Shown: positions 11,613 to 33,971 of the stretch, one piece after another
Layout of the letters: each line of letters begins with the position of its first letter
Numbering within the stretch: the stretch's first letter is position 1
IMG/VR virus record: IMGVR_UViG_3300006969_000007
Origin: a virus
DNA length: 36,782 bases
Strand: one strand, 5' to 3'
Position numbers and translations under genes: made by a program
Notes under the pieces: model-generated
Told to the model about the DNA's origin: nothing
The model's database searches: none
The model's input: the letters and a program-made list of their open reading frames with translations, nothing else

Positions 11613-12293
11613 TTAAGCTAATGTTGCGCGTAAGTTAATTACCCACAAGTCATTAGTAATTCTTGGAACTTCAGCAAATTTGTAACCAACCGACGCGTTC
11701 AACGCTAATGGTCCATCATAAATCGGTGGTCGATAAATAAAGCTTGCTGAGTAACCGTCTTGCTCAATGCATGCGTATGCTTCCATACCAACACAGAAAA
11801 TGTTGAATACATTGGCACCATTTGAAGATGCATTAGCAGTAAAGCTACCAATAGATGAAATCAAGAATCGAAGGTTACCAATAGCACCCCATTCTGAACG
11901 CAATGCATTCATTGGCGCAGGGTATTGGTTCTTTTGAATGAATCCAGCAACGGCATCAAGATTACCAGTCAATTGTGTTGAACATAATGCAAAGTATGCA
12001 TCACGAACTGGTGCTGTACCGAATTTGTCTTCACCTTCGATGTTGTCCATAATCGTGTACGCATTATTGTTTAATAAAGTACGAACGACAGCATCCACAT
12101 CAGAACGGGTAATTTCAGTCGGATTATCACCATTAACACCACCAACACTATTAATAAAACCAGCAGTTGCTGCTAACATATCACGAGTTAATTGGTCTTC
12201 GGTTTGACGAAGAGATACACCAAGACGAGCAGCACATTCATTAAGAACAGGATCTTGGTTCTGCAGTGTGCATTTAACTGTTACTTTTTTTGA
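11613..12293 (-). CDS. Major capsid protein, exon 2 (226 aa; HK97-fold / N4 gp56-like pattern)
   Basis: The frame is open from 12293. There is no start codon for the first 38 conserved codons (SKKVTVKCTLQNQDPVLNECAARLGVSLRQTEDQLTRD). The rest is the 188-aa track ORF. Confidence 0.75.
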   Translation of the reverse strand, partial: SKKVTVKCTLQNQDPVLNECAARLGVSLRQTEDQLTRDMLAATAGFINSVGGVNGDNPTEITRSDVDAVVRTLLNNNAYTIMDNIEGEDKFGTAPVRDAYFALCSTQLTGNLDAVAGFIQKNQYPAPMNALRSEWGAIGNLRFLISSIGSFTANASSNGANVFNIFCVGMEAYACIEQDGYSASFIYRPPIYDGPLALNASVGYKFAEVPRITNDLWVINLRATLA

Positions 12294-13125
12294 CCAAATA
12301 TTTTCTATTTGGCGGTTGGTCTTGTTATTCCCAACTCCCCTAGTCTCCTAAGGGATCGGACTGTCGCTTCACCTCTCGGTGTCCACTCGCCTCAGTCTCT
12401 CAGCGTGATAATTTAATTTATTTATGGTACGCTATATCCATACATTAAAATGAAGGAAAACTATGCATGACGAATTCTCATACTTATCACAAAATAATTC
12501 AGAGCAACAACTAATAAGAGATTTGAAAATAACAACTATGAGCTATCTTGCTGGAATTGTAGACGGAGAAGGATGCATTGGATTAGAACATCTTTCACCG
12601 ACTAAAAATAGAAAGAAAGATTATTACGTATGCCGACTTACCGTAGTTAACACCAGTGAAGAACTAATGAAGTTATTAGTGTCTAGCCTCAAAGGGCAAT
12701 ATGATACAAGAAAAAAGATAGAAGGCAGAAAGACTTGTTATAGATGGCATGTTTTTGGTAAAGACCTAGAACAAGCTATCTTGGCCTTGTTGCCTTATTT
12801 GCGTATCAAAAAGAAACAAGCGAAATTAGTTCTCGAATATAGAAATACAGTAGCAAGCAATGGTTGGCTCATTAGTGATGATGTACTTGCGCATAGAAAA
12901 ACCATTTGGATTGAATGTAAGAAATTAAATACCATAGGTGGTTAAATTATCTTCGCCCTTGTCGCCCTCGTCTTTACGTTAGGGCTTCCAAGTCAATCAG
13001 AGCGGATTTAAAGCAGGCCATTTACTGCTAAAACCAAGAAATTTCAAAGAACAATCGTCGTTAACCTGCTCGTTCAACTGTACATAGGTCTATAATAAGT
13101 CGAACTCATACGGCACCTACTTTTT
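12294..13125 (-). mobile_element. Group I-like self-splicing intron (832 nt) carrying an antisense LAGLIDADG gene
   Basis: P1 pairs exon/intron UACGGU|A with UGCCGUA (plus-strand 13125-13131 with 13109-13115), with U.G at the cleavage site. The intron ends in G at the tip of a 7-bp hairpin CCAAAUA/UAUUUGG (12294-12312). Further stems are 12315-12335, 12338-12354 and GUUCGAC/GUUGAAC. Joining the exons gives an in-frame 314-aa capsid protein. Confidence 0.65.
12463..12945 (+). CDS. LAGLIDADG homing endonuclease, single-motif (I-CreI-size, 160 aa), antisense to the capsid gene
   Basis: Contains the motif SYLAGIVDGEGCIG. SD AAGGAA lies 6 nt upstream of the ATG. It sits inside the capsid-gene interruption. 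Confidence 0.8.
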   Translation: MHDEFSYLSQNNSEQQLIRDLKITTMSYLAGIVDGEGCIGLEHLSPTKNRKKDYYVCRLTVVNTSEELMKLLVSSLKGQYDTRKKIEGRKTCYRWHVFGKDLEQAILALLPYLRIKKKQAKLVLEYRNTVASNGWLISDDVLAHRKTIWIECKKLNTIGG

Positions 13126-13389
13126 ACCGTAAAAACTAATAACTGCATCAATATCTACCGCAGTAAGATTTTGGGCAGGAGGAGTAATACCAGAATTCCC
13201 TAAAGGAACCATCGCTGTGTTAAGCGGATTGTATCGACGCATACGAAGAGTTGTACCACCATTACGCGGCATATTCTTCTTCATTGCGGGGATCTTATGG
13301 ATCATATTAGGAACTGGTACTGAAAGTAGTTTGTACGAGAAACTTTGCTGCACTGGTGCAGGCAGTGTACTCGTAGTTGTGATAGCCAT
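13126..13389 (-). CDS. Major capsid protein, exon 1 (88 aa, ends ...AVISFYG)
   Basis: AAGGAG lies upstream of the ATG at 13389. The N-terminal pattern is QQSFSYKLL...GGTTLRMRRY...LTAVDIDAVISFYG. The unspliced frame stops 2 codons later (TAG at 13117-13119). Confidence 0.75.
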
Positions 13390-16297: not shown

Positions 16298-18397
16298 TCA
16301 TAAACTTGGTTGCTGCGCCGGTTGTTGTTGGGCCATATTAAGTGCTGGATTCTGGGCAATTTGGCTGGCAGCAGCGTTTTCAACACGTTGGGCTTGCTCC
16401 ATTTTGCCTCCAGCAGTCTCTTTGGTATCCGTCCGCAGCATGTTTGCTAAAGCAATCAATTTCTCTAAATGAACGATATCAAGTTGTTCTAATTCTTTCA
16501 ATGCCCTTACTTTATCCAGCAGCCCTGCATCTTCGTCCCGCACCGCTTGTGCCCTGCGTTCAACAGCCAAAGCTTGGTTCTCTTCAACACGTGATACCCG
16601 TTCAAGACCAAGTCCTTGATCAGAAACTGCACGAGCACGAGTAAGTTCAATCTGCGCTTTCTGCATTTCAAGTTGAATGTCTTGAGCTTGTTTTTGTTCT
16701 TCTTGCTGTTGTTTTTTGGCTTGCTCAATGGATTCAATCAGCTCTTTTTTGTTTTGCATAGTCGACGCATTAAGTAGCATGTCATCAGGAACAGGGACTC
16801 CAGCTTCTCGCAAATGAAGCAGTTGTGCAAACTGCATTTGCTTTTGGGTTGCCGTATTGAGGCCTTCTTCAACCACTGCATCATATTTCCCAAACGCCTT
16901 ATTGTAAAATTGTTGAGTAGGTTCTTCTCCTTCAAGAATCTTCTTTACCTTACCCGGCGTGAAGTTAGCCTGAATAAGATTAAGCATCAATTTACCAAGC
17001 ATTTTTTGGGTATGATCAAGGTTATCAAATAAAATCTGTAAGGTGGTAAGACCCGAACCTTGCCGTAACATGGAAAGAATACCCGCTTTATCATCAGTTG
17101 CGCTACCAAGCAACTCTTCATTGACTCCCGATATCTGTGAAATCTCCTCACCAAGGATCTTCGATAGTTCAATCATCGATGGTGGAATTTGGGGAGCCAG
17201 TATCTGCTGCACATCAGTCATTTGTGCTTCATCTTTAAGCGCTAATCCGCGACCTTGTCCTGACAAGAATACATCTTTGGGATTAACGAGTGCAGATTCT
17301 TTATAAATCCATCCCGAGTTGATTTGGGACTCGAGGATATCTAATTCTATTGCCTTACGGCGATTATATAAGTATTGGCTATCACGTAATCCTCTGACAA
17401 CGCCCTGAATACGCCACGGGAAATAAGGCATTTGTGGATAGTAATAGGCAAACGTTGGTACGAATGGATATTGATCGATCCCCATTGGCTGCGGACCATC
17501 GTACATTACTTTCCCTTGTACAACGACTGCAAGTTTTACCGTAGGAACGTCAGATTCAATAACGGTAACCTGTGGATACACGCGTAAGAATTGCTTTAAA
17601 CGATCCTCATCTTGGGATCGCCATTCTTGTGTCTCACCAGTCTGCGCATCAACAAGCAATTTCTGGGGACGATAATCTCTATAATAATATTCATCGTATG
17701 TTAAAAGATTCTTCATACCGTAATTGTAGGTCTCAGGCATGAATTGGAACTTACCATCACGATTTGATAATGGTTCAAGACCAACAATCATTTCAGCAGA
17801 GTCAGGAAGCAGTGAAATACATTCACGTTTAGTAAGATATGAGCGCTTCCAGATCGCATTGCAATCAGATAAATCAGCTTTCTTAAAGAATGGATCGATC
17901 AAAAAACTATTGTATGAACAGTTATCAACCTTTATATTCCCACTCACTGGATCAGATCGATAATCCATCCATACCTGCAGTAAGTTCATCCCGGTAACGA
18001 GTGAACCCCTAAAAGAATCAGATATAGTTTCAAGAATACCTTCTTGGTTATTAATCCACATTAATACTTTGCTAAATTGATCTGCGGTTTCATCATCAGC
18101 ATTCTCGACGCCAACAACAATGGTCGACTTCCTATTGTTTCTCTGATGACCATCGATCATGTTAACGACGCGAGCGATCCGATTGAAATTAAATTGTCTC
18201 CGACGATTGGCAGGAAGATTACCATAGATATCATTCCATAATGTCTGATCACCAGCCATAAACCGTGTATCAGTATCCGCCTCTCCCCAGAAAGATTGAT
18301 TGATAGTGATAGATTCAGCATAAAATGCCTCCATTCGAGACAATATCCCTTTATCTTTTTCATCATAATATTGGGGGGCGAGCTGGGGGAAGATCAT
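16298..18397 (-). CDS. Portal protein
   Basis: 699 aa, placed after the terminase, with a coiled-coil Q/E-rich C-terminus and portal-like N-terminal motifs (FMAGDQTLW, RRQFNFNRIARVVNMIDG). Confidence 0.8.
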   Translation of the reverse strand: MIFPQLAPQYYDEKDKGILSRMEAFYAESITINQSFWGEADTDTRFMAGDQTLWNDIYGNLPANRRRQFNFNRIARVVNMIDGHQRNNRKSTIVVGVENADDETADQFSKVLMWINNQEGILETISDSFRGSLVTGMNLLQVWMDYRSDPVSGNIKVDNCSYNSFLIDPFFKKADLSDCNAIWKRSYLTKRECISLLPDSAEMIVGLEPLSNRDGKFQFMPETYNYGMKNLLTYDEYYYRDYRPQKLLVDAQTGETQEWRSQDEDRLKQFLRVYPQVTVIESDVPTVKLAVVVQGKVMYDGPQPMGIDQYPFVPTFAYYYPQMPYFPWRIQGVVRGLRDSQYLYNRRKAIELDILESQINSGWIYKESALVNPKDVFLSGQGRGLALKDEAQMTDVQQILAPQIPPSMIELSKILGEEISQISGVNEELLGSATDDKAGILSMLRQGSGLTTLQILFDNLDHTQKMLGKLMLNLIQANFTPGKVKKILEGEEPTQQFYNKAFGKYDAVVEEGLNTATQKQMQFAQLLHLREAGVPVPDDMLLNASTMQNKKELIESIEQAKKQQQEEQKQAQDIQLEMQKAQIELTRARAVSDQGLGLERVSRVEENQALAVERRAQAVRDEDAGLLDKVRALKELEQLDIVHLEKLIALANMLRTDTKETAGGKMEQAQRVENAAASQIAQNPALNMAQQQPAQQPSL

Positions 18398-19034: not shown

Positions 19035-20444
19035 TTAATAACCTTCATTATTAAACATCCTTGGCAAATTGCTCTCGCTACCATATAATGCTTCACGGTA
19101 TCGTCGATCAAGTTCATCAGGAGAGGTACCATCTTTTGTTTTTGGTAGTGATATACAGAGATAGCGCATCGAATCCGCAAAATGGGAGGACCAATCGTGC
19201 AGTGGGCAGCTTTTATATACCTTGCGTTTCACATCATACTCTTGGCGGTAATTCTCAAGAGCCTTTAATAATGGCTCGCATGCTTTTACATCAATCCATA
19301 TTTTCCCTAAAGAGGATCGAACCGATTCAATCCCATCTTCGATAGAAACATCTGGTGCTATCGTAAAGCTAATTCCTAACTGTTTTGCTTTCTCGATCCG
19401 TGTCATACCAGAACCAAACTCACGAACGCGTATATCATGGGGCGCAATATGTTTTCCGTAGGTGTACGGCTTCTGCTGTAAGATCTTTGCATAATGCTCA
19501 AGACCTTCTTTATTCTTTTCATACACATCGATTAATCGTATCGCCTGACCAATCACCTGAAAGAAGATAATACAGGTATTATCGCGTACTCCCAAGTCCC
19601 ATGCAGTATGTACTTTGAACCCAGGCTCCCAAGGAACCATGCCAATTTGATTGTTTACCCGCATCCTATCAAGATATTTTGCGTAGTAAGAACCCTCGAC
19701 ACCCATGGTAAAACTGGTATAATACTCTTGTTGAATTAAATCTTCGCTCATTACTCCTTCTCTGCGTTCTTTTTCTATTTCAGAAAGTGGTATGTGATTA
19801 GTGTCTTCAATGGTGAGTTTATACACAAACCATTCAGGAGAATGAAGGGCTATCTGATACAGCTGCCACATATGATTTTTACCCCGAGGAGTAGAGATAA
19901 AAAGTGCCCAGCCTTGGTTCGCCGTCAGAATCGGTCGAATGTATTGATATGCCCTCTCATCCTGCAGTGCATACTCTGAGAATACTACTCCTTGTGGATT
20001 AGTACCCATCAGAGAATCATAGTTATCTGAACCAACTATTTGGAAGAGAGACCCGTTTTTAAAGCGGATCTTCATCTCCTGTCCATTCTTGGAATCTATT
20101 AATTCCTCAGGAATGTAATCTAAAATCCGTTCACCCGTGCTTGTTATTGAATCCCAAAGGATTTTCTTACCCGATGCGTAGGTAGGAAATATGTAAAATA
20201 TTACACACACTTTTCTTAAACAAGCACGAATGCACAGTTGAAAGGCAGTCATGTCCTTACCAGCTCGCCGAGGCAAGATAGCAAGAACCTTTTTGTAACC
20301 CTTATTCTCTATCGCATCAAGAATAGGAAGTTGATAGTCTCGTGGAACAAATTTATTCAATCGTATCTTCGTTTCTACGTTCAGGACAGTTTGCGTACCC
20401 GCAGCTGCAGTGTTCATATTTGCATTTAGCTTCATTGCATGCAT
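19035..20444 (-). CDS. terL: Terminase large subunit
   Basis: Walker A-like LPRRAGKD, an ATPase domain followed by an RNaseH-like nuclease domain (HTAWDLG, HDWSSHFADSMRY). AAGGAA lies 6 nt before the ATG. Confidence 0.9.
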   Translation of the reverse strand: MHAMKLNANMNTAAAGTQTVLNVETKIRLNKFVPRDYQLPILDAIENKGYKKVLAILPRRAGKDMTAFQLCIRACLRKVCVIFYIFPTYASGKKILWDSITSTGERILDYIPEELIDSKNGQEMKIRFKNGSLFQIVGSDNYDSLMGTNPQGVVFSEYALQDERAYQYIRPILTANQGWALFISTPRGKNHMWQLYQIALHSPEWFVYKLTIEDTNHIPLSEIEKERREGVMSEDLIQQEYYTSFTMGVEGSYYAKYLDRMRVNNQIGMVPWEPGFKVHTAWDLGVRDNTCIIFFQVIGQAIRLIDVYEKNKEGLEHYAKILQQKPYTYGKHIAPHDIRVREFGSGMTRIEKAKQLGISFTIAPDVSIEDGIESVRSSLGKIWIDVKACEPLLKALENYRQEYDVKRKVYKSCPLHDWSSHFADSMRYLCISLPKTKDGTSPDELDRRYREALYGSESNLPRMFNNEGY

Positions 20445-20928
20445 AGTGTTTCCTTAACCAGTATTTCAATATATAGTTAATAACCAAAAATATCAGACAA
20501 TGGAGAATGAAATTAAAAACCAAACACATACACCACATTATTCCCGATACTGTTACTGGTATTCTCCCTACAAATGAACACATCCAGTATATCCATCCGA
20601 CGTACGAAAATTGCAGCACTCCATGCCGTTTACGATAACACCACGAGGATGCTTCTGTACGGTTACAGGTAGTTTTATCACACTCATAGTGCTCTCTTAA
20701 CCAGTATTTCAATATAAAGTTAACAACCAAAAAAGTAGCAACGTGGAAAATGAACGACATCATTTGTGAGCCAAATGCCATTGTATATGAATAATGCCTC
20801 TCCAATCTATAGCACATTATTGTTGCTGGTACTAACACTAAAAATGAATACAACCAATACATCCATCCAACAAAGGTAAACTGATCTATACAATGCCGTT
20901 TACGATAACACCATCTATTATTGTTCAT
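20353..20928 (-). CDS. Polytopic membrane protein built from two tandem ~81-aa repeats with a Cys-rich tail
   Basis: WCYRKRH..QF..VGW.YW ... NFILKYWLR.HY.C occurs twice. Hydrophobic helices are present. The 3' end overlaps terL by 92 nt. Confidence 0.65.
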   Translation of the reverse strand: MNNNRWCYRKRHCIDQFTFVGWMYWLYSFLVLVPATIMCYRLERHYSYTMAFGSQMMSFIFHVATFLVVNFILKYWLREHYECDKTTCNRTEASSWCYRKRHGVLQFSYVGWIYWMCSFVGRIPVTVSGIMWCMCLVFNFILHCLIFLVINYILKYWLRKHYACNEAKCKYEHCSCGYANCPERRNEDTIE

Positions 20929-20950: not shown

Positions 20951-21988
20951 TTATTCTTTTTGTTCGTCAAGACCTTGTATTGCCCTAATTGATCTCTTCA
21001 ATTCATTATCACCAGATCGTCTATAATTAATACTTTTGTCACCAAAACGAGCAAGTGTTTTTGCATGTTTTTCACTCTGCGAAGCCATTTCTTTTTTTAT
21101 AAGAGCAAGTTCTTTCTGTTTTTGATTAAGCTTTTGATTTTGTTCACTTTTTAATATTTCTTCATGGAGTTTTGAAGCATTTTCTTGTATTTCTAAGTTA
21201 GCAGCATTGACCTTTAAATTCTGTTCAGCATACTCTAGGGCTTTTTGTCGATCTTCAGTGAGTTGACGCTGTTCTTCTTCTCGTGCCGCTGGCCCTCCTT
21301 TTAAAACATCAACAACTTTCTGAAAACCAATAGCAGCACCACCGCTACTTGCAGTGAAAACAACTCCATTCACCGCAATATTAGCAAGCTCTTTTGCTCT
21401 ATCCGAATTACTCATTTCTGCATCATTCATAACGTGCGCAACGCTCTTTGATGAACCAATAGTATTTGCCGCGCCGGATATTGCTATCTTGCCTAATCGT
21501 TTCGCGTGGTCAATCGTAGCATTTAATGCACTGTACGTCTCCTGATGAGGATTTGCGACCTCCGCAGAAACAATCGGTTCTACAGCTGGCGCATTAAAAC
21601 CTCTGGTTGTTTTATCATCAGTACCTTCATTTGATGAACCAATAGAAGCTGCCGCTCCTGACAGTACTACTTTAGTTGCAGTTGGCGTTGAAGAAACAGC
21701 GGCATTTAATGCATTGTACGCTTTCGTAGCTGCAGCAGAAGGATTTGCAGCTATTGCAGCAACAATCGGTGCAGCATATGGTGCCACAAGTACGGTAGCA
21801 GATCCAGCTACAGCTCCAATCGCAAAACTAGTAGCATCCTTTTTAAACTTCTGTGGTGTTCCGCTTACTCTACACATGCTTCTCATAATACCCCATCCAC
21901 CACTATATTTAGAATCGCATGTTTCCTCATTAGCAGAGAAGATCAATGATGATACGCAGAGTAATGACAAAGATAATAATTTATTCAC
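20951..21988 (-). CDS. Secreted protein with a signal peptide, an Ala/Ser/Gly-rich core and a C-terminal coiled coil
   Basis: N-terminus is MNKLLSLSLLCVSSLIFSANEE. The C-terminal third is E/Q/K heptads. Confidence 0.65.
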   Translation of the reverse strand: MNKLLSLSLLCVSSLIFSANEETCDSKYSGGWGIMRSMCRVSGTPQKFKKDATSFAIGAVAGSATVLVAPYAAPIVAAIAANPSAAATKAYNALNAAVSSTPTATKVVLSGAAASIGSSNEGTDDKTTRGFNAPAVEPIVSAEVANPHQETYSALNATIDHAKRLGKIAISGAANTIGSSKSVAHVMNDAEMSNSDRAKELANIAVNGVVFTASSGGAAIGFQKVVDVLKGGPAAREEEQRQLTEDRQKALEYAEQNLKVNAANLEIQENASKLHEEILKSEQNQKLNQKQKELALIKKEMASQSEKHAKTLARFGDKSINYRRSGDNELKRSIRAIQGLDEQKE

Positions 21989-22043: not shown

Positions 22044-23294
22044 TTAAAAGAGATTTCTTCGTTTCGCTGCTTTCGGCGCTTCCTGTGGAGCTACTTGAGG
22101 AGCTGCTGCTTGAGAAGCTAATTTCTTTTGTTGAGATAATTCAAATATCTGACGCAGTGATGGCGCTGCGACTGGAGCAGATTGCTGAACCACGGGCGCT
22201 GCTGCCTTTGGAGCCGCTTGAACAGCTTTAGGAGCAGGAGCCGGGGCTTGTTTTACGGGCGCTGCTTTTTGAGCCGCTGGCGCCGCTGCTGGTTTTTTAG
22301 TTACCGGTGCTGGTGCCGCTTTTGCTGCTGCCTTTGGCGCTGCAGCAGGTGCTGATTCTCGTTTTACAGGCGTTGCTCCCTTATAAGCACCGGATTGAAC
22401 TGGCGCTATATCATCATATACAGCGCTATAAATTTTACAGCTATCATTCCCACCTGTGCGCTCAAAACGAGCCGGTTGTGGTGGTGTATAATTACTATCC
22501 ATATTCACTTTATATGCTCCATCTGCACCAATTGAAAGTCTAGGATCAAGAATACTGGATTCCCCCCAACCCAAAGGATGCCTTGATAGTGCTGTGCCCC
22601 CCAAAGCACATTCCGCCTTAGAAGTCGGTGCCGGATCACTACCAGTATATAAATCACGAACCATTTGATCATTTATCTCTTGCTCTCTTCTATACTGAGC
22701 GCCTCTACAATCTCTACAAGGTTCACGAGTAGCGCCTATTGAATCCGCAGTGGCATTAATAGCCGCTTTCGTAACCTGTCCACCAACTTCTCCAAGAGCT
22801 CCGGCAACAATTGCTTCTAACGCCCACATCATATTATGAGTCAAAACACCATCAACGAATAACTGATGAACCGATGCAATGTTCACCATACGTGTTTTCA
22901 TTGCCAAGCCACTCTTTCTTTTCACATCAAGGATAGTAATTGGCAATAGATCACCGCCAAATAATGCATTCTGGGCAGTAAGATCTTCTGCCTTTATCCA
23001 TTCTTCTTTTAATGGATCAAAAAACAATTGATCTGGTGCTGCTTTGATTCTTCGTTTTCCCAAATTGATTTGTATTGTTGAGTTTCTCCTGCCACCACAC
23101 TGGTTCATCAGGACTCGCTCGTGTGCAAGACCGTTCATCTCTCTGTTCGCAGAAAGAACGCGCTCACCTACCATAACTTCGTGTAACATTTTTACGCCAG
23201 AACCGGATTGTACTAATGCATCGCCTGGTATAACCGCAGCGATAGGATTGGAAAGTGCGACAAGAATCGTCGACATCTTTAAATGATATTTCAT
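22044..23294 (-). CDS. Hint (Hedgehog/intein-like) domain protein with a Pro/Ala/Lys-rich C-terminal region
   Basis: ATG at 23294 lies 4 nt after GGAGC. It has a hydrophobic leader. The Hint-like blocks are GDALVQSGSGVKMLHEVMVGERVLS ... VNIASVHQLFVDGVLTHN, ending in the intein-type HN. The low-complexity segment reads APAAAPKAAAKAAPAPV... Confidence 0.65.
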   Translation of the reverse strand: MKYHLKMSTILVALSNPIAAVIPGDALVQSGSGVKMLHEVMVGERVLSANREMNGLAHERVLMNQCGGRRNSTIQINLGKRRIKAAPDQLFFDPLKEEWIKAEDLTAQNALFGGDLLPITILDVKRKSGLAMKTRMVNIASVHQLFVDGVLTHNMMWALEAIVAGALGEVGGQVTKAAINATADSIGATREPCRDCRGAQYRREQEINDQMVRDLYTGSDPAPTSKAECALGGTALSRHPLGWGESSILDPRLSIGADGAYKVNMDSNYTPPQPARFERTGGNDSCKIYSAVYDDIAPVQSGAYKGATPVKRESAPAAAPKAAAKAAPAPVTKKPAAAPAAQKAAPVKQAPAPAPKAVQAAPKAAAPVVQQSAPVAAPSLRQIFELSQQKKLASQAAAPQVAPQEAPKAAKRRNLF

Positions 23295-23348
23295 GTTGCT
23301 CCCTGAAATATACTCGTATATGATTTTAAACACTGCTCTGCTTTACTA

Positions 23349-23588
23349 CTACCGCAAAAATTTAGTCTGTATTTCCTCCATTTCTTGCACGTAATTGTTG
23401 TAAATTTCTTGGCACATAATCTCTTCTTCACCTATAAGCACGGTTGCCCAAAGGCTTATCGACCAACTCATGATATCCCGTATACCCCACGAAGATGAAG
23501 ATCGACAAACGAAAGAATGAGTATCAGTTGCTGAAAGAGATCCAGCAAGTAACATAATTATCGAACATCGTATCATCATACGTTTCAT
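23349..23588 (-). CDS. Small secreted/membrane-anchored protein
   Basis: ATG at 23588 lies after AGGAC. The signal-like leader is MKRMMIRCSIIMLLAGSLSA. Confidence 0.5.
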   Translation of the reverse strand: MKRMMIRCSIIMLLAGSLSATDTHSFVCRSSSSWGIRDIMSWSISLWATVLIGEEEIMCQEIYNNYVQEMEEIQTKFLR

Positions 23589-23748
23589 GTACGTCCTAAA
23601 ATGTAATGAGTTATCGCACATCACTGTAGCGGTAATTTTTAAAAAATAAAGAGCGTTTTTGCCAAAAAAATGATTTTAGGAACAAAATAAAAAAAACTGC
23701 ATTCAGCGTGTAACGTGAAGGGAAAAAACATTCCTAAAAGTTGCGTGA

Positions 23749-26135: not shown

Positions 26136-26330
26136 ATGAGTACAAAAAATGAACTAGCGAGAATCACTATTGACCTTCCGCCAGAGCTACAAAAAAAATT
26201 AAAAACTTTCTCAGTGATCAATGGAATAAGCATGAAAGAATTAGTGATCACCGCAATTGAGAAGCAACTGAAAGCAATGGAAGCGAAAACAACTAATATC
26301 TTGCATCGAGAAAATTATCATGGAAAATAA
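26136..26330 (+). CDS. Ribbon-helix-helix DNA-binding protein; first gene of the rightward operon
   Basis: ARITIDLPPELQKKLKTFSVINGISMKELVITAIEKQL fits the RHH pattern. SD AAGGAAAAA lies upstream. Confidence 0.7.
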   Translation: MSTKNELARITIDLPPELQKKLKTFSVINGISMKELVITAIEKQLKAMEAKTTNILHRENYHGK

Positions 26331-26871
26331 TCTGTTTAATGCATTGGCTCGCGCACAGGCTACCTATGCTGTTGCACACAAGAATGGGTATAATCCTCAC
26401 TACAAGAGTAGTTTCTCAACATTTGAGGACCTTGTATTGGCTTCACGTGAATCGTTGACTAGAGAGGGAATTTCAGTGACTCAGTATATTGAGTCTACTG
26501 AAGATGGAAAAGATTACCTTATAACGATCCTTATGCATATCTCAAGTCAGAGTATTAAGAGTAAGATGATCATTGCAGTGAAAGACAGAACTGATGTACA
26601 GAAGTTCGGCAGTGCTCTTACCTATTTAAAGAGGTATTTGTACGCAGCGATCTGCGGGATAGCAACCTCAGAACACGATGAAGATGGAAACGACACAATA
26701 CAAGAGAACGTTATTACTGACAAGCAGGCAGCGTTATTGCATATGTTGATGAAAGGCGATATGGATCTAGAGGGAAAGATCTGTAAGCATTATAATATTA
26801 CATCGATCAGAAGTTTGCCGATGAAGTACATGAACCAACTCGTAGAGAAACTTAAACCGAAAGAATCTTAA
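26320..26871 (+). CDS. ERF-family single-strand annealing protein (copy 1)
   Basis: KFGSALTYLKRYLYAAICGIATSEHDEDGND matches the ERF signature G..TY.RRY.....GI...DDD, and the N-terminal region is ERF-like. Confidence 0.7.
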   Translation: MENNLFNALARAQATYAVAHKNGYNPHYKSSFSTFEDLVLASRESLTREGISVTQYIESTEDGKDYLITILMHISSQSIKSKMIIAVKDRTDVQKFGSALTYLKRYLYAAICGIATSEHDEDGNDTIQENVITDKQAALLHMLMKGDMDLEGKICKHYNITSIRSLPMKYMNQLVEKLKPKES

Positions 26872-27653: not shown

Positions 27654-28349
27654 GTGAGTGAATGCATCTGTAAGAATAAAAAAGATAAACTCTATGAGGC
27701 GTTAGCGAAAACAAAACTTGAGTATCGTAATGTAACCTTCAATAGAGTTAACTCCTTCAACAAACAGGTCTACGCAGATCTTGATATCATCCAGAAAAGT
27801 ACCAACAAAGCATTAGCAAATAATGGCTTGGTATTTATTCAAGAACCTCGTGATGAAGATGGTACGACATTCCTCTATTCAACACTCGGTCATGCAAGTG
27901 GTCAAGAGATCATCTGTAAAAGCCGCTTAATCGTTCCAGGTTACACGGGAGCTAAGTCAGACAACCAACGCTTTGGCGAATCACTTGCGTATCTTAAAAG
28001 GCATGTAGCGCAGTGTATGCTTGGGGTGGTTGCCAATAACGATCCAGAAGATAATGATGATGCAGATGCCTCAGAAACTCAATACGCTAACGAATCACGC
28101 AGATCGATGGCAGGTGATGAGAAAGCAGCACATGTTGATCAGGGAATATTTACTGAAAAGATAACCAGAGAACAGCTTGATGAACTTTATTATGAGCTAC
28201 AGGATTATCCTATCATGGCTGAGAGCCTCAAGAAGGCATTAGAGATATCCCATTTATCAGATGTTCCTAAGGCTAAATATACCTCCCAGATGCAGCATAT
28301 TAGAAGACAGAAAATAGCTCTGATGAACTCGCCACGCAAAGAATGGTAA
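27654..28349 (+). CDS. ERF-family single-strand annealing protein (copy 2, divergent)
   Basis: GTG start lies 5 nt after GAAGGA. RFGESLAYLKRHVAQCMLGVVANNDPEDNDDAD is an ERF signature variant. Confidence 0.65.
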   Translation: MSECICKNKKDKLYEALAKTKLEYRNVTFNRVNSFNKQVYADLDIIQKSTNKALANNGLVFIQEPRDEDGTTFLYSTLGHASGQEIICKSRLIVPGYTGAKSDNQRFGESLAYLKRHVAQCMLGVVANNDPEDNDDADASETQYANESRRSMAGDEKAAHVDQGIFTEKITREQLDELYYELQDYPIMAESLKKALEISHLSDVPKAKYTSQMQHIRRQKIALMNSPRKEW

Positions 28350-28663: not shown

Positions 28664-29896
28664 CTAGACGTAATAAAGTCCTTGGATAAGCATACTGTGA
28701 TAAACGCTTGGCGTATTTATAAATAAAGTACTGGTGATAGCAAAAGCATTTCCTGATGATAAATTATTAAGTTGTGCCTGAATAGACATCGTTGTGGTTC
28801 CCGCCACAAATCTACACCATGTATACTGATTACTCCCTAAACTATTAAGTCTATTTTCACCCCATCCTGCTGTTTCCATGAAAAATGATCCATGAGCATT
28901 AGAAACAGTAAATGGTAATCCAGATATGGTAGCAGCTAATCCTCCTGTAGAACCTGAATATTGTGGACTTATATAAATATTTATAAATACAATACTCCCC
29001 ATGCGTACATACCAACCATATCTATTACCAGCAAAATAACTAATCCCAGAAGATGAACCGCCCAAAAGTAAAGAGGGCGTAAAGGTACCGTTTGAATAAT
29101 TCGGTAATGCACCACTTCCCGTGCCAGTTATAGTTACGGTGCTTCCTGCAGCAGATATGGATGTTCCCGTGCCAGAAGCAAAAGTTATAACGCCCGCAGC
29201 AGGAGTAGCGGTTCCCGTCGCAGGACTCGTTATATAACTTTGAGCAATATTAGAGCCAGCAGTTACCGTAACGGTCGAACCCGCACCACTGGTAGAAATA
29301 GAGTTAGAACCATATATATTCAATACACCAGCAACCGGAACTGCTGTACCAGCCTGGGTTAAGAATGATGTTGCATTGGCTCCTGATTGAGAAATGGTCA
29401 ATGTTGAAGTACCGGGATTACCGGCAACAGAGATCGTTCCCGCACCAAGTATGTTAATATTACCGGCTGTTTCGCCAACAGCACCGCCACTATTGCCAGT
29501 TAATGTTAACGCAGCACCACCACCGATAGCGCTCATCGTTAACGTAGAAGTGCCTGGATTACCCGTTATATTTACCGTGGTACCATCACCTACTACATTG
29601 ATATTACCAGATAAGGGTAATACCAAGCCACCAGAGTTACCGGTTAATGAAAGCAATCCAGTACCTGATCCTTGTACCTGTATCCAGGTAGCGGTCAAAC
29701 CATTTGTTACTGCAAGATACCATATGGAATTGTCAGAAGTATTAAGCCACCAATCACCACGATTAAATTCACGAGCATCATCTACCGTAGGAGCTGAAGA
29801 AGCCATGGTAAAGTTGGTAGGTTGAACAGCATTGGCACCAATATATGACAAGGGTGTAAATCCATTAAGTCGTTGATTCTGATTATTACTAGACAT
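28664..29896 (-). CDS. Tail fibre paralog 3 (410 aa)
   Basis: Has the shared N-terminus QRLNG(F/L)(T/N)PLSY(I/L)G, repeated modules TGNSGG...GNIN.VG...GNPGTSTLT, and a divergent C-terminal domain. Confidence 0.8.
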   Translation of the reverse strand: MSSNNQNQRLNGFTPLSYIGANAVQPTNFTMASSAPTVDDAREFNRGDWWLNTSDNSIWYLAVTNGLTATWIQVQGSGTGLLSLTGNSGGLVLPLSGNINVVGDGTTVNITGNPGTSTLTMSAIGGGAALTLTGNSGGAVGETAGNINILGAGTISVAGNPGTSTLTISQSGANATSFLTQAGTAVPVAGVLNIYGSNSISTSGAGSTVTVTAGSNIAQSYITSPATGTATPAAGVITFASGTGTSISAAGSTVTITGTGSGALPNYSNGTFTPSLLLGGSSSGISYFAGNRYGWYVRMGSIVFINIYISPQYSGSTGGLAATISGLPFTVSNAHGSFFMETAGWGENRLNSLGSNQYTWCRFVAGTTTMSIQAQLNNLSSGNAFAITSTLFINTPSVYHSMLIQGLYYV

Positions 29897-29905
29897 ATGG
29901 AACTC

Positions 29906-31129
29906 CTAAATTAAATAACAACCAGAAACGGTAAATGTAGAACCATTTTGTAGATTATTTGATATGAAAAATGGCGCTGATTTAGCACCTGCTCCCAAAA
30001 ACGATCCAGTGTAAGGGTTACCCATGACAAGACCAGCACCAAATATAACATACCAATAAAGAATATTACCGACTGGTATATTATATTGATAACTCGTTAT
30101 AGGAGTTGAAAAAGTAACTTGAGGACTCCCATAAGCAGCAGGATAAGAAGGGACGGTAAACGGAAGTCCACTAAGAATTGTGGTGCCAACAATAGTAGGA
30201 GCCCACGTTGCTATAGCAATATCAATCTGAACAAAAACAAAATTACCTATCTGAACATATTGACCATTTTGACGTGTATAAGTAATACCTGCAGTACCTG
30301 CAGAGGTCCTTAAAATCGGTACAAATGATCCTGTTGAATAAGTAGGAGTCGCACCACCACTACTTGTTATGGTCACCGTACTTCCCGCTGCTGACATGGT
30401 AATGCCACCAGCTCCTGCAAAAGTTAATACGCCAGCTGCTGGTATCGCCGTTCCCGTAGCTGGACTCGTTTTATAACTTTGTGATAATGTTCCACCTGCT
30501 ACCACGGTGACAGTAGATCCTACACCAGTCGTTGATAGTCCATTTGATCCATTGATGGTAAGAGCGCCTGCAACAGGTATTGCTGTGCCAGATTGAGTAG
30601 GAAATGACTGAGCAACAATACCACTTTGACTTACTGTCAACGTCGAAGTTCCTGGATTACCCGCAACAGATATGGGCGCTGTACCAATGATATTTATGTT
30701 ACCCATAGTCGGGCCTACTGCGCCACCACTATTACCAGTGAGTGTACTCGTCGCTGGCGCACCGACAGCAGATATCGTCAACGTACTTGTTCCTGGATTA
30801 CCCGCAATATTCATTGATACCCCATCACCAACAACATTAATGTTGCCAAGTGTTGGTGGTACGGGACCACCGGTGTTTGCTGTTAACGTTTCAACAGCAC
30901 CACTCATGGCAGATACATTAATCCACGTAGCAGATCCATTAGTAAGCGCTGCCAAATAAAATAAACTGTTTGTATCCGTATTAAGCCACCAGGTACCCAA
31001 ATAAAAATTATTAAAATCGGTCGTTAATGGATCTCTGGGTAGTTTTATAAAATCAGTAGGTTGATATGCATCAACACCTAGATATGATAAAGGATTGAGA
31101 CCATTCAATCGTTGATTCACTCGTGACAT
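29906..31129 (-). CDS. Tail fibre paralog 2 (407 aa)
   Basis: Same architecture as 28664..29896, with a distinct C-terminus. Confidence 0.8.
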   Translation of the reverse strand: MSRVNQRLNGLNPLSYLGVDAYQPTDFIKLPRDPLTTDFNNFYLGTWWLNTDTNSLFYLAALTNGSATWINVSAMSGAVETLTANTGGPVPPTLGNINVVGDGVSMNIAGNPGTSTLTISAVGAPATSTLTGNSGGAVGPTMGNINIIGTAPISVAGNPGTSTLTVSQSGIVAQSFPTQSGTAIPVAGALTINGSNGLSTTGVGSTVTVVAGGTLSQSYKTSPATGTAIPAAGVLTFAGAGGITMSAAGSTVTITSSGGATPTYSTGSFVPILRTSAGTAGITYTRQNGQYVQIGNFVFVQIDIAIATWAPTIVGTTILSGLPFTVPSYPAAYGSPQVTFSTPITSYQYNIPVGNILYWYVIFGAGLVMGNPYTGSFLGAGAKSAPFFISNNLQNGSTFTVSGCYLI

Positions 31130-31146
31130 ATACTATCTCTCCTTTA

Positions 31147-32352
31147 TTACATAAAATACATGCCATAAAATGTAAATGATGTAGTACTTAAAAAGTGATT
31201 TGTTTGTACAATACCCCCAGCCACCAGTGGGCCCCCATATCGTAACGTTCCTGTCGTAGCACCAGGAGTAAATCTAACCCAAAAATATGTCGTTCTTCCT
31301 GCTGCAAAAAGAACATTGCTCACTGGCGTTAAAATATTAAATTGATGACTATCCATAAAAGAAGTAACCACATTAGATACCGTAAATGGCAAATCTTCAA
31401 TCAACACATTATTAATAGGTGCTGGCCATCCTGTTAGAGTAATGTTCGCGGTAACATACACCATAGTACCTATTTGTGTATAAATACCCAGTTGCTTTGA
31501 ATAGGTTATACCGGCTCTATTACCATTAATAGATAGTGCCGGAGTCCAGTTACCCGTTGAGTAGGAAGGAACCCCCCCTCCAGTTACACTAAATGTTACG
31601 GTACTGCCTGCAGCAGAAGCAGTTGAGTTAGCCCCTGAGGCGAACGTTAGCACTCCTGCAGCCGGCACCGCTACGCCGGTCGCAGGGCTGGTGATAAAAC
31701 TTTTTGCTAACGCAGAACCACCAATAACCGTAACCGTATTCCCGACACCCATCGTTGATAATCCATTGGAACCATTAACAGTCAAGACACCCGCTACTGG
31801 TGTCGCAGTCCCTGCTTGGGTAATAAATGAATTAGCAACCGCACCCGATTGCGTAATAGTAAGCGTAGAAGTACCAGGATTACCTGCAATGGAGAGGGTA
31901 CCAGTACCAACTAAATTTATATTGTCCGCTGTAGGAAAAACCGGACCGCCCGTATTACCAGTTAATGAACTGATCACTGATGATCCAATAGCAGAAACGG
32001 TTAGCGTATTAGTTCCAGGATTACCTATTACGAGTACCGTAGTAACATCTCCCACAAGATTAATATTGCCAGCTGTTGGGCTGACGGGGCCACCACTGTT
32101 ACCCGTTAATGTTTGTATACCAGGAACAGATGAAGATATATTAATCCACGAAGCAACCCCATTACGTAATGATGCTAAATAAAAAAGAGAGGTCGTAGCG
32201 CTATTAAGCCACCACGAACCTACATACACATTCCTATTATCACTCGTCTCTGGATTCCTTGGTTGTATAACGATATTCGTTGGCTGAACCGCATCAAACC
32301 CAAGATAGGATAATGGGTTTAAACCATTCAATCGTTGATCTATCTTAGGCAT
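31147..32352 (-). CDS. Tail fibre paralog 1 (401 aa)
   Basis: Same architecture as 28664..29896, with a distinct C-terminus. Confidence 0.8.
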   Translation of the reverse strand: MPKIDQRLNGLNPLSYLGFDAVQPTNIVIQPRNPETSDNRNVYVGSWWLNSATTSLFYLASLRNGVASWINISSSVPGIQTLTGNSGGPVSPTAGNINLVGDVTTVLVIGNPGTNTLTVSAIGSSVISSLTGNTGGPVFPTADNINLVGTGTLSIAGNPGTSTLTITQSGAVANSFITQAGTATPVAGVLTVNGSNGLSTMGVGNTVTVIGGSALAKSFITSPATGVAVPAAGVLTFASGANSTASAAGSTVTFSVTGGGVPSYSTGNWTPALSINGNRAGITYSKQLGIYTQIGTMVYVTANITLTGWPAPINNVLIEDLPFTVSNVVTSFMDSHQFNILTPVSNVLFAAGRTTYFWVRFTPGATTGTLRYGGPLVAGGIVQTNHFLSTTSFTFYGMYFM

Positions 32353-32363
32353 AATAGTTCCTT

Positions 32364-33950
32364 TTATGTTGATGCTATCATATACGCAAAACTAATTGTT
32401 ATGGTGTTATCATTAGCAGCATTACCTGATATTTCTGTTGCTATCGGTTGGTATACAACTACAGTTTTATTAGCAGTACTAGTTATAGCAGTAGGATTAG
32501 TTAGAGTAATGCCACCCAGTTGAAATTTTGAACTTGTAGAAACTATGAGAGCAGTAGTTAAAGCATCAGTACTAGAAGAAACAAGCAGTCCTGCACCATC
32601 CGTATATTTTAATACAATAGTTTGAGATGCAGCGGCGGTAAAAGCACTCGTTCCACCATAATTTAATGTACCTACCTGTTGAACTCCAATAATTGACAGT
32701 CCAGCACCCGGAGCTGCTAATATTTGAATAGGTGTTGCGTGAAGATTTTTTATTTGAGAATTAGTTAAAGTTAAAGTAACAACTTTAACAACTCCAGAGG
32801 GAGCAGCAGCAGCTTGAAAACTTGGCGCCGTACCAGCAGCATTTGCTGTTAAAACAAATCCTGCTGTACCGGTAACCGTTGAAATTACCCCTGTACTACT
32901 TGTTACTAATGCTCCTTCAGCAAATGCTGGTATTTTAATTCCACCACTTCCTGATTGAAGATTCGTCGTTGACGTTGTATTAGTGCTACCAAGAGTAATA
33001 GTCTTAACAGCAGCACCTGTTCCTAGATTGACTGTTGTCGCTGATGCATCAGTTGATACACCAAGTGTTCCTGTTCCAGAATTTATCGTTAATGTACCAT
33101 TCGTACTCGTAACTGCTAATGCACCTGAACCACTTTGAACAGTCGTAGCAGAAGTAGAGTTAGTGCTACCAAGAGTAACGCCTTTCACTGCAGCACCAGT
33201 TGCAAGACTCACCGTCGTTGCTGATGCATCAGTAGAAATACCAAGTGCACCAGTTCCGGAATTTATGGTGAGAGCACCATTAGTTGACGTAACATTAAGC
33301 GCTCCAGATCCGCTTTGTACTGTGGTAGCAGACGTTGAATTGGTACTTCCGAGTGTCACTCCTTTAACGGCAGCACCTGTTCCTAAGCTTACTGTTGTTG
33401 CAGAAGCATCAGTTGAAACACCTAAAGCTCCTGTACCAGAGTTAATAGTAAGAGCACCGTTGGTTGAAGTTACATTGAGAGCCCCACTACCACTTTGGAT
33501 AGTTGTAGTAGATGTCGTATTGGTACTACCAAACGTGGAAGTCTTAACCCCAGCACCAGTACCGATGTTTATGGTTGAAGCAGTTGCATCAGTCGCTAAT
33601 GACACCGTACCACCATTCGCGGTAATACCCGCAAAGGTAGTGGTAAACGTAGAAATTAAACCATCAAATGAAAGCCCGGTTGTGCCTCCAGTAAAAATAA
33701 ATGCTGCACCGACTAATGGTCCGCCGGTATCACCAGTGATAGTAATAGGCGATGGTGATCCAGAAGTCCATGTAGGAAGTGCACCTGCACCTGCCGAGGT
33801 TAATAGTTGACCGGCTGTACCGAGTCCTACCACATTCTGAAATGGACCAGTAGCAGTAGTTCCTGCGGTAATAACGGAATATGCCGTAAATGTATTATTT
33901 CCTGTTCCCCCTTCTACAACTGGCTGGGGGCTAATTCTTTTATATGCCAA
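32364..33950 (-). CDS. Tail fibre with a 60-aa tandem-repeat shaft (528 aa)
   Basis: The N-terminus reads EGGTGNNTFTAY...GQLLTSAGAGALPTWTS. It has about 3.8 copies of VSTDASATTVSLGTGAAVKGVTLGSTNSTSATTVQSGSGALNVTSTNGALTINSGTGALG. Confidence 0.8.
   Translation of the reverse strand: MAYKRISPQPVVEGGTGNNTFTAYSVITAGTTATGPFQNVVGLGTAGQLLTSAGAGALPTWTSGSPSPITITGDTGGPLVGAAFIFTGGTTGLSFDGLISTFTTTFAGITANGGTVSLATDATASTINIGTGAGVKTSTFGSTNTTSTTTIQSGSGALNVTSTNGALTINSGTGALGVSTDASATTVSLGTGAAVKGVTLGSTNSTSATTVQSGSGALNVTSTNGALTINSGTGALGISTDASATTVSLATGAAVKGVTLGSTNSTSATTVQSGSGALAVTSTNGTLTINSGTGTLGVSTDASATTVNLGTGAAVKTITLGSTNTTSTTNLQSGSGGIKIPAFAEGALVTSSTGVISTVTGTAGFVLTANAAGTAPSFQAAAAPSGVVKVVTLTLTNSQIKNLHATPIQILAAPGAGLSIIGVQQVGTLNYGGTSAFTAAASQTIVLKYTDGAGLLVSSSTDALTTALIVSTSSKFQLGGITLTNPTAITSTANKTVVVYQPIATEISGNAANDNTITISFAYMIAST
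32950..33640. repeat. About 3.8 tandem copies of a 180-bp in-frame repeat
   Basis: Anchor strings recur at 32981, 33161, 33341 and 33521, an exact 180-nt period. Confidence 0.85.
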
Positions 33951-33971
33951 AGTTTTCTCCTTTGAAATTTA

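Follow-up and report, generated by a model that had tools for sequence, protein, structure and literature searches.

Hint domains are two-ended catalysts. How, then, should one read a Hint-like domain that begins directly behind a hydrophobic leader, carries no nucleophile at its first position and keeps the His-Asn pair at its last? The question is raised by a gene on the minus strand of IMG/VR virus record IMGVR_UViG_3300006969_000007, a stretch of 36,782 nucleotides that we analyzed at its full length and refer to as the window; it represents the nearly complete ~36.8 kb genome of an uncultured podovirus-like phage. The gene (22044..23294) encodes a protein of 416 residues, and an earlier note, written by a model that saw only the letters and their open reading frames (ORFs), had suggested that it contains a degenerate Hint domain. 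Using structure prediction, profile searches and comparative genomics, we find that this domain is confidently modeled as a Hint fold, that it belongs to a clade of Hint domains in which the canonical cysteine is absent, and that the region behind it is exchanged between related phages at the predicted cleavage site. Based on these data, we propose that the gene encodes an exported pro-protein in which a Hint domain of the pre-toxin type would cleave itself from its C-terminal tail through Asn154, a reading to which we assign a probability of roughly 0.6.

A Hint fold without the N-terminal nucleophile

The Hint domain comprises residues 21-154 (134 residues; 22833..23234, minus strand as for all features of this gene), is all-beta and ends in ...VHQLFVDGVLTHN. 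AlphaFold, run on an alignment of 57 sequences of the closest class, models these residues with a predicted local distance difference test score (pLDDT) of 94-98. A Foldseek search of the PDB gives 58 matches at E<=1e-3, all of which are Hint (best E 3e-11, probability 1.0). Bacterial intein-like (BIL) domains and mini-inteins head the list, at E 3e-11 to 1e-7 and template modeling (TM) scores of 0.8-0.87. For instance, BIL2 from the Tetrahymena BUBL locus (6y75) is matched at E 3e-11 and TM 0.83, and a Clostridium thermocellum BIL domain (2lwy) at TM 0.87 and a root-mean-square deviation of 1.9 Å; the gp41-1, DnaB, RecA and DnaE mini-inteins and the hedgehog autoprocessing domain are also found.

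At the sequence level, the search against Hint profiles that the earlier note had recommended does return a match: the Pfam family PT-HINT (PF07591) aligns with residues 27-151 over profile positions 1-133 of 137 (E 6.8e-4, 20.3 bits), and the Hint domain alone scores 23 bits (E 1e-4). Searches of PHROGs, NCBIfam and PDB sequences with the window protein gave no match, and a word-indexed search of 5.8 billion proteins recovered just two relatives, each from a sister phage, even when the low-complexity tail was left out; with a 57-sequence profile the same kind of search gave two matches. An exhaustive HMMER search, in which a profile of the three closest Hint regions was compared with 1.84 billion cluster representatives, identified 140 proteins at E<=1e-3, and canonical PT-HINT proteins appear among them at whole-library E values of 1e-10 to 1e-3. 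One of these, P0030, is a textbook PT-HINT protein with three repeats of the form CFVAGTPV...VTxEHPFWDP...GVLVHNK. The likeness is far above chance by the PT-HINT match, the profile search, AlphaFold and Foldseek, and we rejected a coincidental similarity to Hint; as a structural prediction, the assignment of residues 21-154 to the Hint fold is secure. The Hint/intein pattern that had been noticed by eye at about these residues, and its resemblance to BIL domains, are thus borne out, in that 6y75 and 2lwy are the nearest solved structures, while by sequence PT-HINT is the nearest family.

The active-site blocks of the domain are only half preserved. Its start block, GDALVQSGSGVKMLHEVMVGERVLS, covers residues 24-48, and in a MAFFT alignment of 129 Hint segments drawn from the profile-search matches, Val21 (23232..23234) occupies Hint position 1, in line with the canonical Cys nucleophile. 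Block B reads AAPDQ (residues 85-89; 23028..23042), with Ala86 in place of Thr and Gln89 in place of His. Blocks F and G, VNIASVHQLFVDGVLTHN, span residues 137-154 (22833..22886) and retain His143, His153 and Asn154, the His-Asn codons lying at 22833-22838. Met155 comes next, and the predicted scissile junction is Asn154/Met155 (22830..22835). The positions of the start and end blocks, the missing Cys or Ser at the domain start, the replacement of TxxH by APDQ and the intact terminal His-Asn followed by Met had all been described in the earlier note, and the alignment agrees with it on each.

A Hint fold with a terminal His-Asn, in a phage that encodes a LAGLIDADG endonuclease elsewhere in its genome, could also be an ordinary intein or its decayed remnant, that is, a selfish element within a host gene. 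However, there is no Cys, Ser or Thr at position 1 (Val21) or at the +1 position (Met155), and the domain holds no homing-endonuclease insert and is bordered by a leader and a hypervariable tail instead of by a conserved host protein. Some 60 relatives, moreover, share this architecture under evident constraint. We therefore consider an intein origin of this kind extremely improbable.

A clade of Hint domains with glutamine in block B

Comparison of the 129 Hint segments reveals two classes. Cys at position 1 goes together with the block-B His in 48 of 49 segments, and a residue other than Cys goes together with Gln in 61. The canonical class accordingly has Cys1 in 48/48 and the block-B His in 48/48, whereas the clade that includes the window protein has Cys1 in 0/61 and Gln in 61/61; because the relatives were sampled with a clade-derived profile, these class proportions are biased and do not amount to a census. 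Position 1 in the clade is mostly Ala (19), Gly (13), Ser (9), Val (8) or Asp (8). At +1, the residue varies among Phe, Met, Gly and Asn, with Cys, Ser and Thr all but absent. A mean column identity of only ~26% in the clade alignment is accompanied by strict conservation of a few residues: Gln89 (61/61), one of just three columns that do not vary in alignment A3, His153 and Asn154 (60/61 each) and the block-F His143 (47/61). A further signature of the clade is DQxF[FY]DP.

The clade is coherent by descent as well as by motif. In a neighbor-joining tree built without the diagnostic columns, 60 of the 61 sequences fall within a single clade of 66. The remaining six members lack Cys1 and still have the block-B His, which suggests that the Cys was lost first and that the change from His to Gln followed. 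The two classes also differ in architecture. Hint position 1 lies at a median residue of 22-24 in the clade, behind a hydrophobic leader, versus a median start residue of 148 in the canonical class. Similarly, a hydrophobic segment within 70 residues after the His-Asn is present in 82% of the clade (40% strong and 42% weaker) versus 0% of canonical proteins. PT-HINT matches 50 of 57 clade members at E<=0.01, and some relatives exceed its gathering score, for example P0040 (52.0), P0064 (48.3) and P0102 (29.0).

Judged by these alignments, the window domain is a member of a coherent, widespread clade under evident constraint and no decaying copy. The earlier label "degenerate" is misleading in this respect, given that the clade is conserved and has its own invariant Gln89 and its own architecture. 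Open-access text yielded no account of a Hint clade that lacks the Cys, bears the Gln and abuts a leader, although an earlier account may exist, and the clade is apparently a sizeable, undescribed branch of the toxin-releasing Hint domains. Neither the GTDB species genomes, searched with two alignments, nor the IMG/VR and INPHARED phages yielded relatives, and a scan of metagenomes added two short contigs only.

Does the conserved C-terminal half still work? Conservation of His153, Asn154 and His143 against a background of ~26% identity supports a working C-terminal cleavage site. The domain might instead be inert, a folded ectodomain used for binding or oligomerization and permanently attached to its tail, with the His-Asn and Gln89 kept for structure. 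The domain has lost two of the three canonical catalytic elements, established intein biochemistry has Asn cyclization run slowly as a rule once the N-terminal steps are blocked, and free-standing, uncharacterized Hint-domain proteins are common in phage catalogues. We nevertheless judge an inert domain unlikely. The residues needed for C-terminal cleavage are precisely the near-invariant ones, in surroundings that vary freely, and two further observations, on the position of module exchange and on what other proteins carry behind the domain, argue in the same direction and are given below.

A predicted signal peptide abuts Hint position 1

The gene consists of 416 codons from an ATG at 23294-23292 and a stop codon at 22044-22046. 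By reading of the sequence, a Shine-Dalgarno site, AGGGAG (23299..23304), lies 4 nucleotides upstream of the ATG, and the upstream sequence with AGGGAG is also present in the variants L011 and L012. Gene callers report the identical 416-residue product on 22 metagenome contigs, several of them 36-37 kb long. An alternative GTG start at 23333 was rejected; the ATG at 23294 is preferred because of its Shine-Dalgarno site and because the gene callers use it.

Residues 1-20 (MKYHLKMSTILVALSNPIAA; 23235..23294) form the predicted leader, recognized by inspection and hydropathy. It reads MKYHLK, MSTILVALS, NP and IAA and then passes into Val21 (S-N-P-I-A-A/V-I-P-G-D). With a basic n-region, an h-region of 13 residues, Pro at -4 and Ile-Ala-Ala at -3 to -1, it has the features of a Sec-type signal peptide, for which signal peptidase I is predicted to cut between Ala20 and Val21. 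The hydrophobic leader had been remarked on before; what we add is that the AXA site lies against the first Hint residue, and we propose for it a role beyond export. This contact is not peculiar to the window protein, since 38 of the 61 clade members have Ala (32), Gly (4) or Ser (2) directly before Hint position 1, at -1. From these sequence comparisons, signal peptidase appears to stand in for the lost N-terminal reaction.

The C-terminal module is exchanged at the His-Asn boundary

The predicted scissile junction is also a mosaic breakpoint. Between the window and the variant L012, DNA identity is 84-100% over the leader and Hint domain up to about nucleotide 22830 and drops to 17-46% directly after it. 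It recovers only in the Ala/Pro-rich part, and the region of residues 205-313 is 25-79% identical. Compared with L011, the tail is unrelated throughout. The length of the partner gene that lies downstream, which in the window is predicted to encode a secreted protein of 345 residues, shifts along with the tail among the variants (345, 281 and 180 residues). Exchange of a C-terminal module exactly at the predicted cleavage site is, on this comparison, the behavior of a polymorphic toxin gene. It is also the second observation that speaks against an inert, permanently attached Hint domain, as the exchange takes place precisely at the His-Asn boundary.

The tail itself begins with a Gly/Ala-rich, weakly hydrophobic helix at residues 155-183 (MMWALEAIVAGALGEVGG...; 22746..22832), which was recognized by hydropathy and by AlphaFold, where the helix covers residues 159-183 at a pLDDT of ~62. 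This segment may span the membrane with the basic tail in the cytoplasm, may lie on the membrane or may be exported together with the tail; its weak hydrophobicity leaves the placement of the tail in the periplasm, membrane or cytoplasm ambiguous. The Cys-containing region that the earlier note had pointed to downstream is REPCRDCRGAQYRRE (residues 190-204; 22683..22727), with a Cys-Arg-Asp-Cys motif. Alignment A1 with the closest relatives identifies it as a local form of [DES]NGRDGxGxx[HW]R, common to P0002, P0003, P0005, P0007 and P0008, in which both Gly have become Cys. The middle of the tail (residues 205-313; 22356..22682) is hypervariable, has no family match and is modeled with low pLDDT. 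The Pro/Ala/Lys spacer proposed earlier is likewise present, as an Ala/Pro/Lys-rich low-complexity stretch (residues 314-378; 22161..22355) with 29 Ala, 13 Pro and 8 Lys in 65 residues and only low-complexity matches. Lastly, a C-terminal helix (residues 379-395; modeled by AlphaFold as 380-396 at a pLDDT of ~68) and a basic end, ...KAAKRRNLF, complete the protein (22047..22160), and both are conserved in P0002.

Relatives carry toxins behind the same module

HINT peptidases sit just before the toxin domains of Sec-exported polymorphic toxins, where they are described as toxin-releasing autopeptidases (Zhang et al. 2012, PMC3482391). We find the same arrangement within the clade of the window protein. 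A ColE3-type Cytotoxic domain (PF09000) is located at the C-terminus of P0032, P0104, P0140 and P0040, Ntox37 at that of P0102 and Ntox21 at that of P0064. P0032 is encoded on a 118-kb chromosomal contig (GCA_009612835.1; 33-39% GC) between plsX, gltX, fabD and acpP. On this contig, the locus L021 (6001-11220) is a polymorphic-toxin array made up of a Hint-ColE3 gene with a DUF6980 gene, a second Hint gene with DUF6980 and an orphan Cytotoxic fragment with DUF6980. Because a DUF6980 gene follows each member of the array, DUF6980 is a candidate immunity family for ColE3-type toxins. Small downstream genes are likewise found at P0051 and P0102. Relatives that place toxins and dedicated immunity genes behind the domain show the arrangement of a releasing peptidase (PMC3482391), and this is the third observation against an inert Hint domain.

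Other relatives are from phages and mobile elements. P0010 (513 residues) and P0008 (390 residues) are phage proteins with 30-42% identity in the Hint part. They fill, in the related phages L015 and L027, the position that the Hint gene has in the window. A common gene order is shared by the window, L015 and L027, namely an HTH_36 gene, a gene of ~200 residues, the Hint gene, the secreted partner, a small gene, the large terminase and a P22-type portal. In a third related phage, P0009 (193 residues) is part of a two-gene cassette with a secreted protein of 135 residues, and its tail consists only of one hydrophobic helix and a basic end. As a separate observation, an element with a large serine recombinase (L019, 8227-10678) has three tandem Hint genes of the Cys-less clade (183, 292 and 225 residues), each with a leader, a Hint domain, a His-Asn and a different hydrophobic tail.

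A proposed route of export and self-cleavage

Based on the residue pattern and the architecture, we propose the following route for the window protein. The Sec leader (residues 1-20) would carry the N-terminus across the cytoplasmic membrane, and signal peptidase I would cut after Ile-Ala-Ala, leaving Val21, Hint position 1, as a free N-terminus. There would then be no N-extein, and the Cys1 nucleophile and the block-B His would therefore be dispensable, consistent with the loss of both. With His143, His153 and Asn154 retained, Asn154 would cyclize to a succinimide and the Asn154-Met155 bond would be broken, giving a 14.8-kDa Hint domain and a 27.1-kDa tail (residues 155-416, 262 residues). 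The freed N-terminus of the tail would be a Gly/Ala-rich amphipathic or hydrophobic helix, and the tail would serve as polymorphic "cargo". By analogy with relatives that carry rRNase and tRNase toxins behind the same module, and because a secreted partner gene co-varies with the tail, this cargo is most likely an envelope-directed phage effector, whether toxin-like, concerned with exclusion or related to lysis. Our default is a toxin-like or exclusion effector for which the secreted neighbor acts as partner or immunity protein.

Several findings weigh against this proposal. In canonical inteins Asn cyclization is coupled to the N-terminal steps and proceeds slowly without them; Gln89 or the freed amino terminus may offset the missing steps. 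The window protein stays under the PT-HINT gathering score, at 20.3-23 versus 27.7 bits, and the sampling bias described above applies to the clade counts. Pro occupies the -1 position in 16 of the 61 clade members, a misfit to a signal-peptidase cut exactly at position 1. The helix after the His-Asn is strongly hydrophobic in many relatives and only weakly so in the window protein (maximum KD19 value 1.12). Finally, no recognizable toxin or enzyme domain was found in the tail with Pfam, PHROGs, NCBIfam or PDB sequences, and the full-length AlphaFold model, made from an alignment of three sequences, has a pLDDT of 36 and is not confident in the tail.

The neighboring genes and a possible link to lysis

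Downstream of the Hint gene, the partner gene (20951..21988, minus strand) encodes 345 residues with a predicted signal peptide, hydrophobic segments rich in Gly and Ala and, at the end, a charged coiled coil. A partner gene adjoins every phage copy of the Hint gene; it is very variable in length (180-345 residues) and sequence and co-varies with the tail. The third gene of the cassette (20353..20928, minus strand) encodes a Cys-rich, internally duplicated protein of 191 residues with four hydrophobic segments, built from two tandem units of the form WCYRKRH...two hydrophobic segments...ILKYWLRxHYxC. About 90 nucleotides of this ORF are shared with the start of the large terminase gene. It is probably a real membrane protein, since it is conserved as a 192-residue homolog in L024, and it may be holin-like. 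Profile-library scans gave no family match for either gene.

On the other side, a small ORF of ~90 residues just upstream of the Hint gene (23349-23624, minus strand) has an internal leader-like hydrophobic stretch (MKRMMIRCSIIMLLAGSLSA), and in L013 a different secreted protein, of 92 residues, occupies its position.

The setting of the cassette invites a more specific version of self-cleavage. In lambdoid phages, as on the lambda and P22 maps, the lysis genes lie directly upstream of the large terminase gene, which is where the Hint cassette is located. The cassette could be a lysis module timed by slow self-cleavage, which would expose a membrane-active N-terminus in the manner of a "pro-holin". 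All three cassette genes are envelope-targeted by prediction, scans of ~30 window ORFs with profile libraries detected no endolysin, holin or spanin family, and the Hint protein of L016 has a tail of only 43 residues, with one strong hydrophobic helix and a basic end, which is the pattern of a holin. We consider a lysis timer quite unlikely all the same. The lysis families of PHROGs, Pfam and NCBIfam match neither the Hint gene nor its neighbors, so that none of the cassette genes belongs to a recognized holin, endolysin or spanin family, and the window tail is long (262 residues), weakly hydrophobic and mostly of low complexity. A small Peptidase_M15_4 gene is present in L016 beside a scaffold-like gene; about 1.9 kb separates the peptidase gene from the Hint cassette, which lies on the other strand. 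In chromosomal relatives, the Hint module serves nuclease toxins and not lysis, and the lack of an endolysin is a negative result that comes from profile libraries only.

In an extension of self-cleavage after export, export would itself be the trigger. Here the new alpha-amino terminus, placed in the active site by the signal-peptidase cut, together with Gln89 would gate the cyclization of Asn154, the self-timed pro-protein would bare a Gly/Ala-rich, membrane-active N-terminus, and the cassette upstream of the terminase would, in a phage group with no endolysin identified, be a novel lysis or exclusion device with intein chemistry as its clock. We offer this combination as a speculative idea in which we place little confidence.

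The phage genome

Apart from the cassette, the window encodes a P22-type portal (16298-18397; PF16510, E 2e-71), the large terminase (19035-20444), capsid and tail-fiber proteins, two ERF recombinases and a replication-type protein of the HTH_36 family. A search for tRNA genes in the window found none. The same genome was recovered as contigs of 36-37 kb with differing end points from several soil and rhizosphere metagenomes. Deposited phages and plasmids include no near relative of it, and even the closest portals of cultured phages, those of Rhizobium and Pseudomonas podophages, are only ~25% identical to the window portal.

Three features of the genome are of interest beyond the Hint gene. 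First, the major capsid gene looks split into an N-terminal piece of 90 residues (13117-13389, minus strand) and a piece of 188 residues (11613-12179, minus strand) that matches the C-terminal half of the major-head-protein profile. The gap of ~940 nucleotides between them holds the LAGLIDADG endonuclease ORF on the opposite strand (12463-12945, plus strand). The arrangement recurs in sister contigs, and an Rfam scan of the split capsid region gave no group I intron. Second, five consecutive tail-fiber-like genes form a fiber gene array (28664-35318, minus strand). In four of the five, the motif ...GN(I/L)N(V/L/I)VGDG...GNPGTSTLT... recurs; three, of ~400 residues each, are clearly paralogous, with conserved N-termini and divergent C-termini. 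Third, the two ERF-family recombinase genes are separate (26320-26871 and 27654-28349, plus strand), a duplication also present in L015.

Implications and comparison with known systems

In an enzyme family that acts at both ends, this lineage seemingly hands the N-terminal cut to signal peptidase and keeps the Asn-cyclization half, to which an invariant Gln has been added. Were cleavage confirmed, the result would be a compact, cysteine-free, export-compatible self-cleaving module of 134 residues, useful for the removal of tags in oxidizing compartments. It would also widen the known processing routes of polymorphic toxins. For phage biology, it would mean that a group of uncultured soil podophages carries the module as a conserved terminase-adjacent gene, a sign of an unrecognized envelope-directed function (toxin, exclusion or lysis) in phages with no identifiable endolysin.

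How does the window protein compare with the systems nearest to it? It shares with PT-HINT, its closest sequence family, the fold, the terminal ...GVL-x-His-Asn, the block-F His, the position before a polymorphic C-terminal module and the association with Sec export, and its own relatives with ColE3, Ntox21 or Ntox37 domains have adjacent immunity genes. However, the canonical PT-HINT domain is internal, starts with Cys-Phe-x-x-Gly-Thr, has Thr-x-x-His and lacks hydrophobic flanks, whereas the domains of the window clade lie directly behind a leader, have no Cys1, show Gln without exception in place of the block-B His and are, in 82% of cases, followed by a hydrophobic or Gly/Ala-rich segment.

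A-type BIL domains are reportedly the subject of Amitai et al. 2003 and Dassa et al. 2004. They are the best structural matches to the window domain (TM 0.83-0.87), they likewise have a His-Asn without a +1 nucleophile and they occur within hypervariable regions of non-conserved, often secreted proteins. The difference is that A-type BIL domains have both the N-terminal Cys and block B and may even splice, and the window domain is without that half. Measured against the features common to PT-HINT and A-type BIL families, the window domain lacks Cys1 and Thr-x-x-His and, for this protein alone, falls under the Pfam threshold, while it does have the Hint fold, the His-Asn with the block-F His, no +1 nucleophile and a hypervariable context. 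The earlier note had taken BIL domains to be limited to C-terminal cleavage; this does not hold for the A-type, which keeps Cys1 and can cleave at either end, C-terminal cleavage proceeding through Asn (PMC7765530).

MuF-domain toxins, which are listed among the polymorphic toxins (PMC3482391), resemble the window protein in being phage-encoded and in joining a conserved N-terminal module to a polymorphic C-terminal effector. They differ in that they are packaged in the head and have neither leader nor Hint domain, and the window tail contains no recognized toxin. The closest parallel in chemistry is found among inteins mutated at position 1. In such proteins, for example the C1A mini-inteins that serve in C-terminal cleavage tags, Asn cyclization and C-terminal cleavage proceed without the N-terminal nucleophile. 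These are engineered, and usually have the block-B His and an N-extein, whereas the window clade is natural, has Gln at the block-B position and is predicted to have no N-extein.

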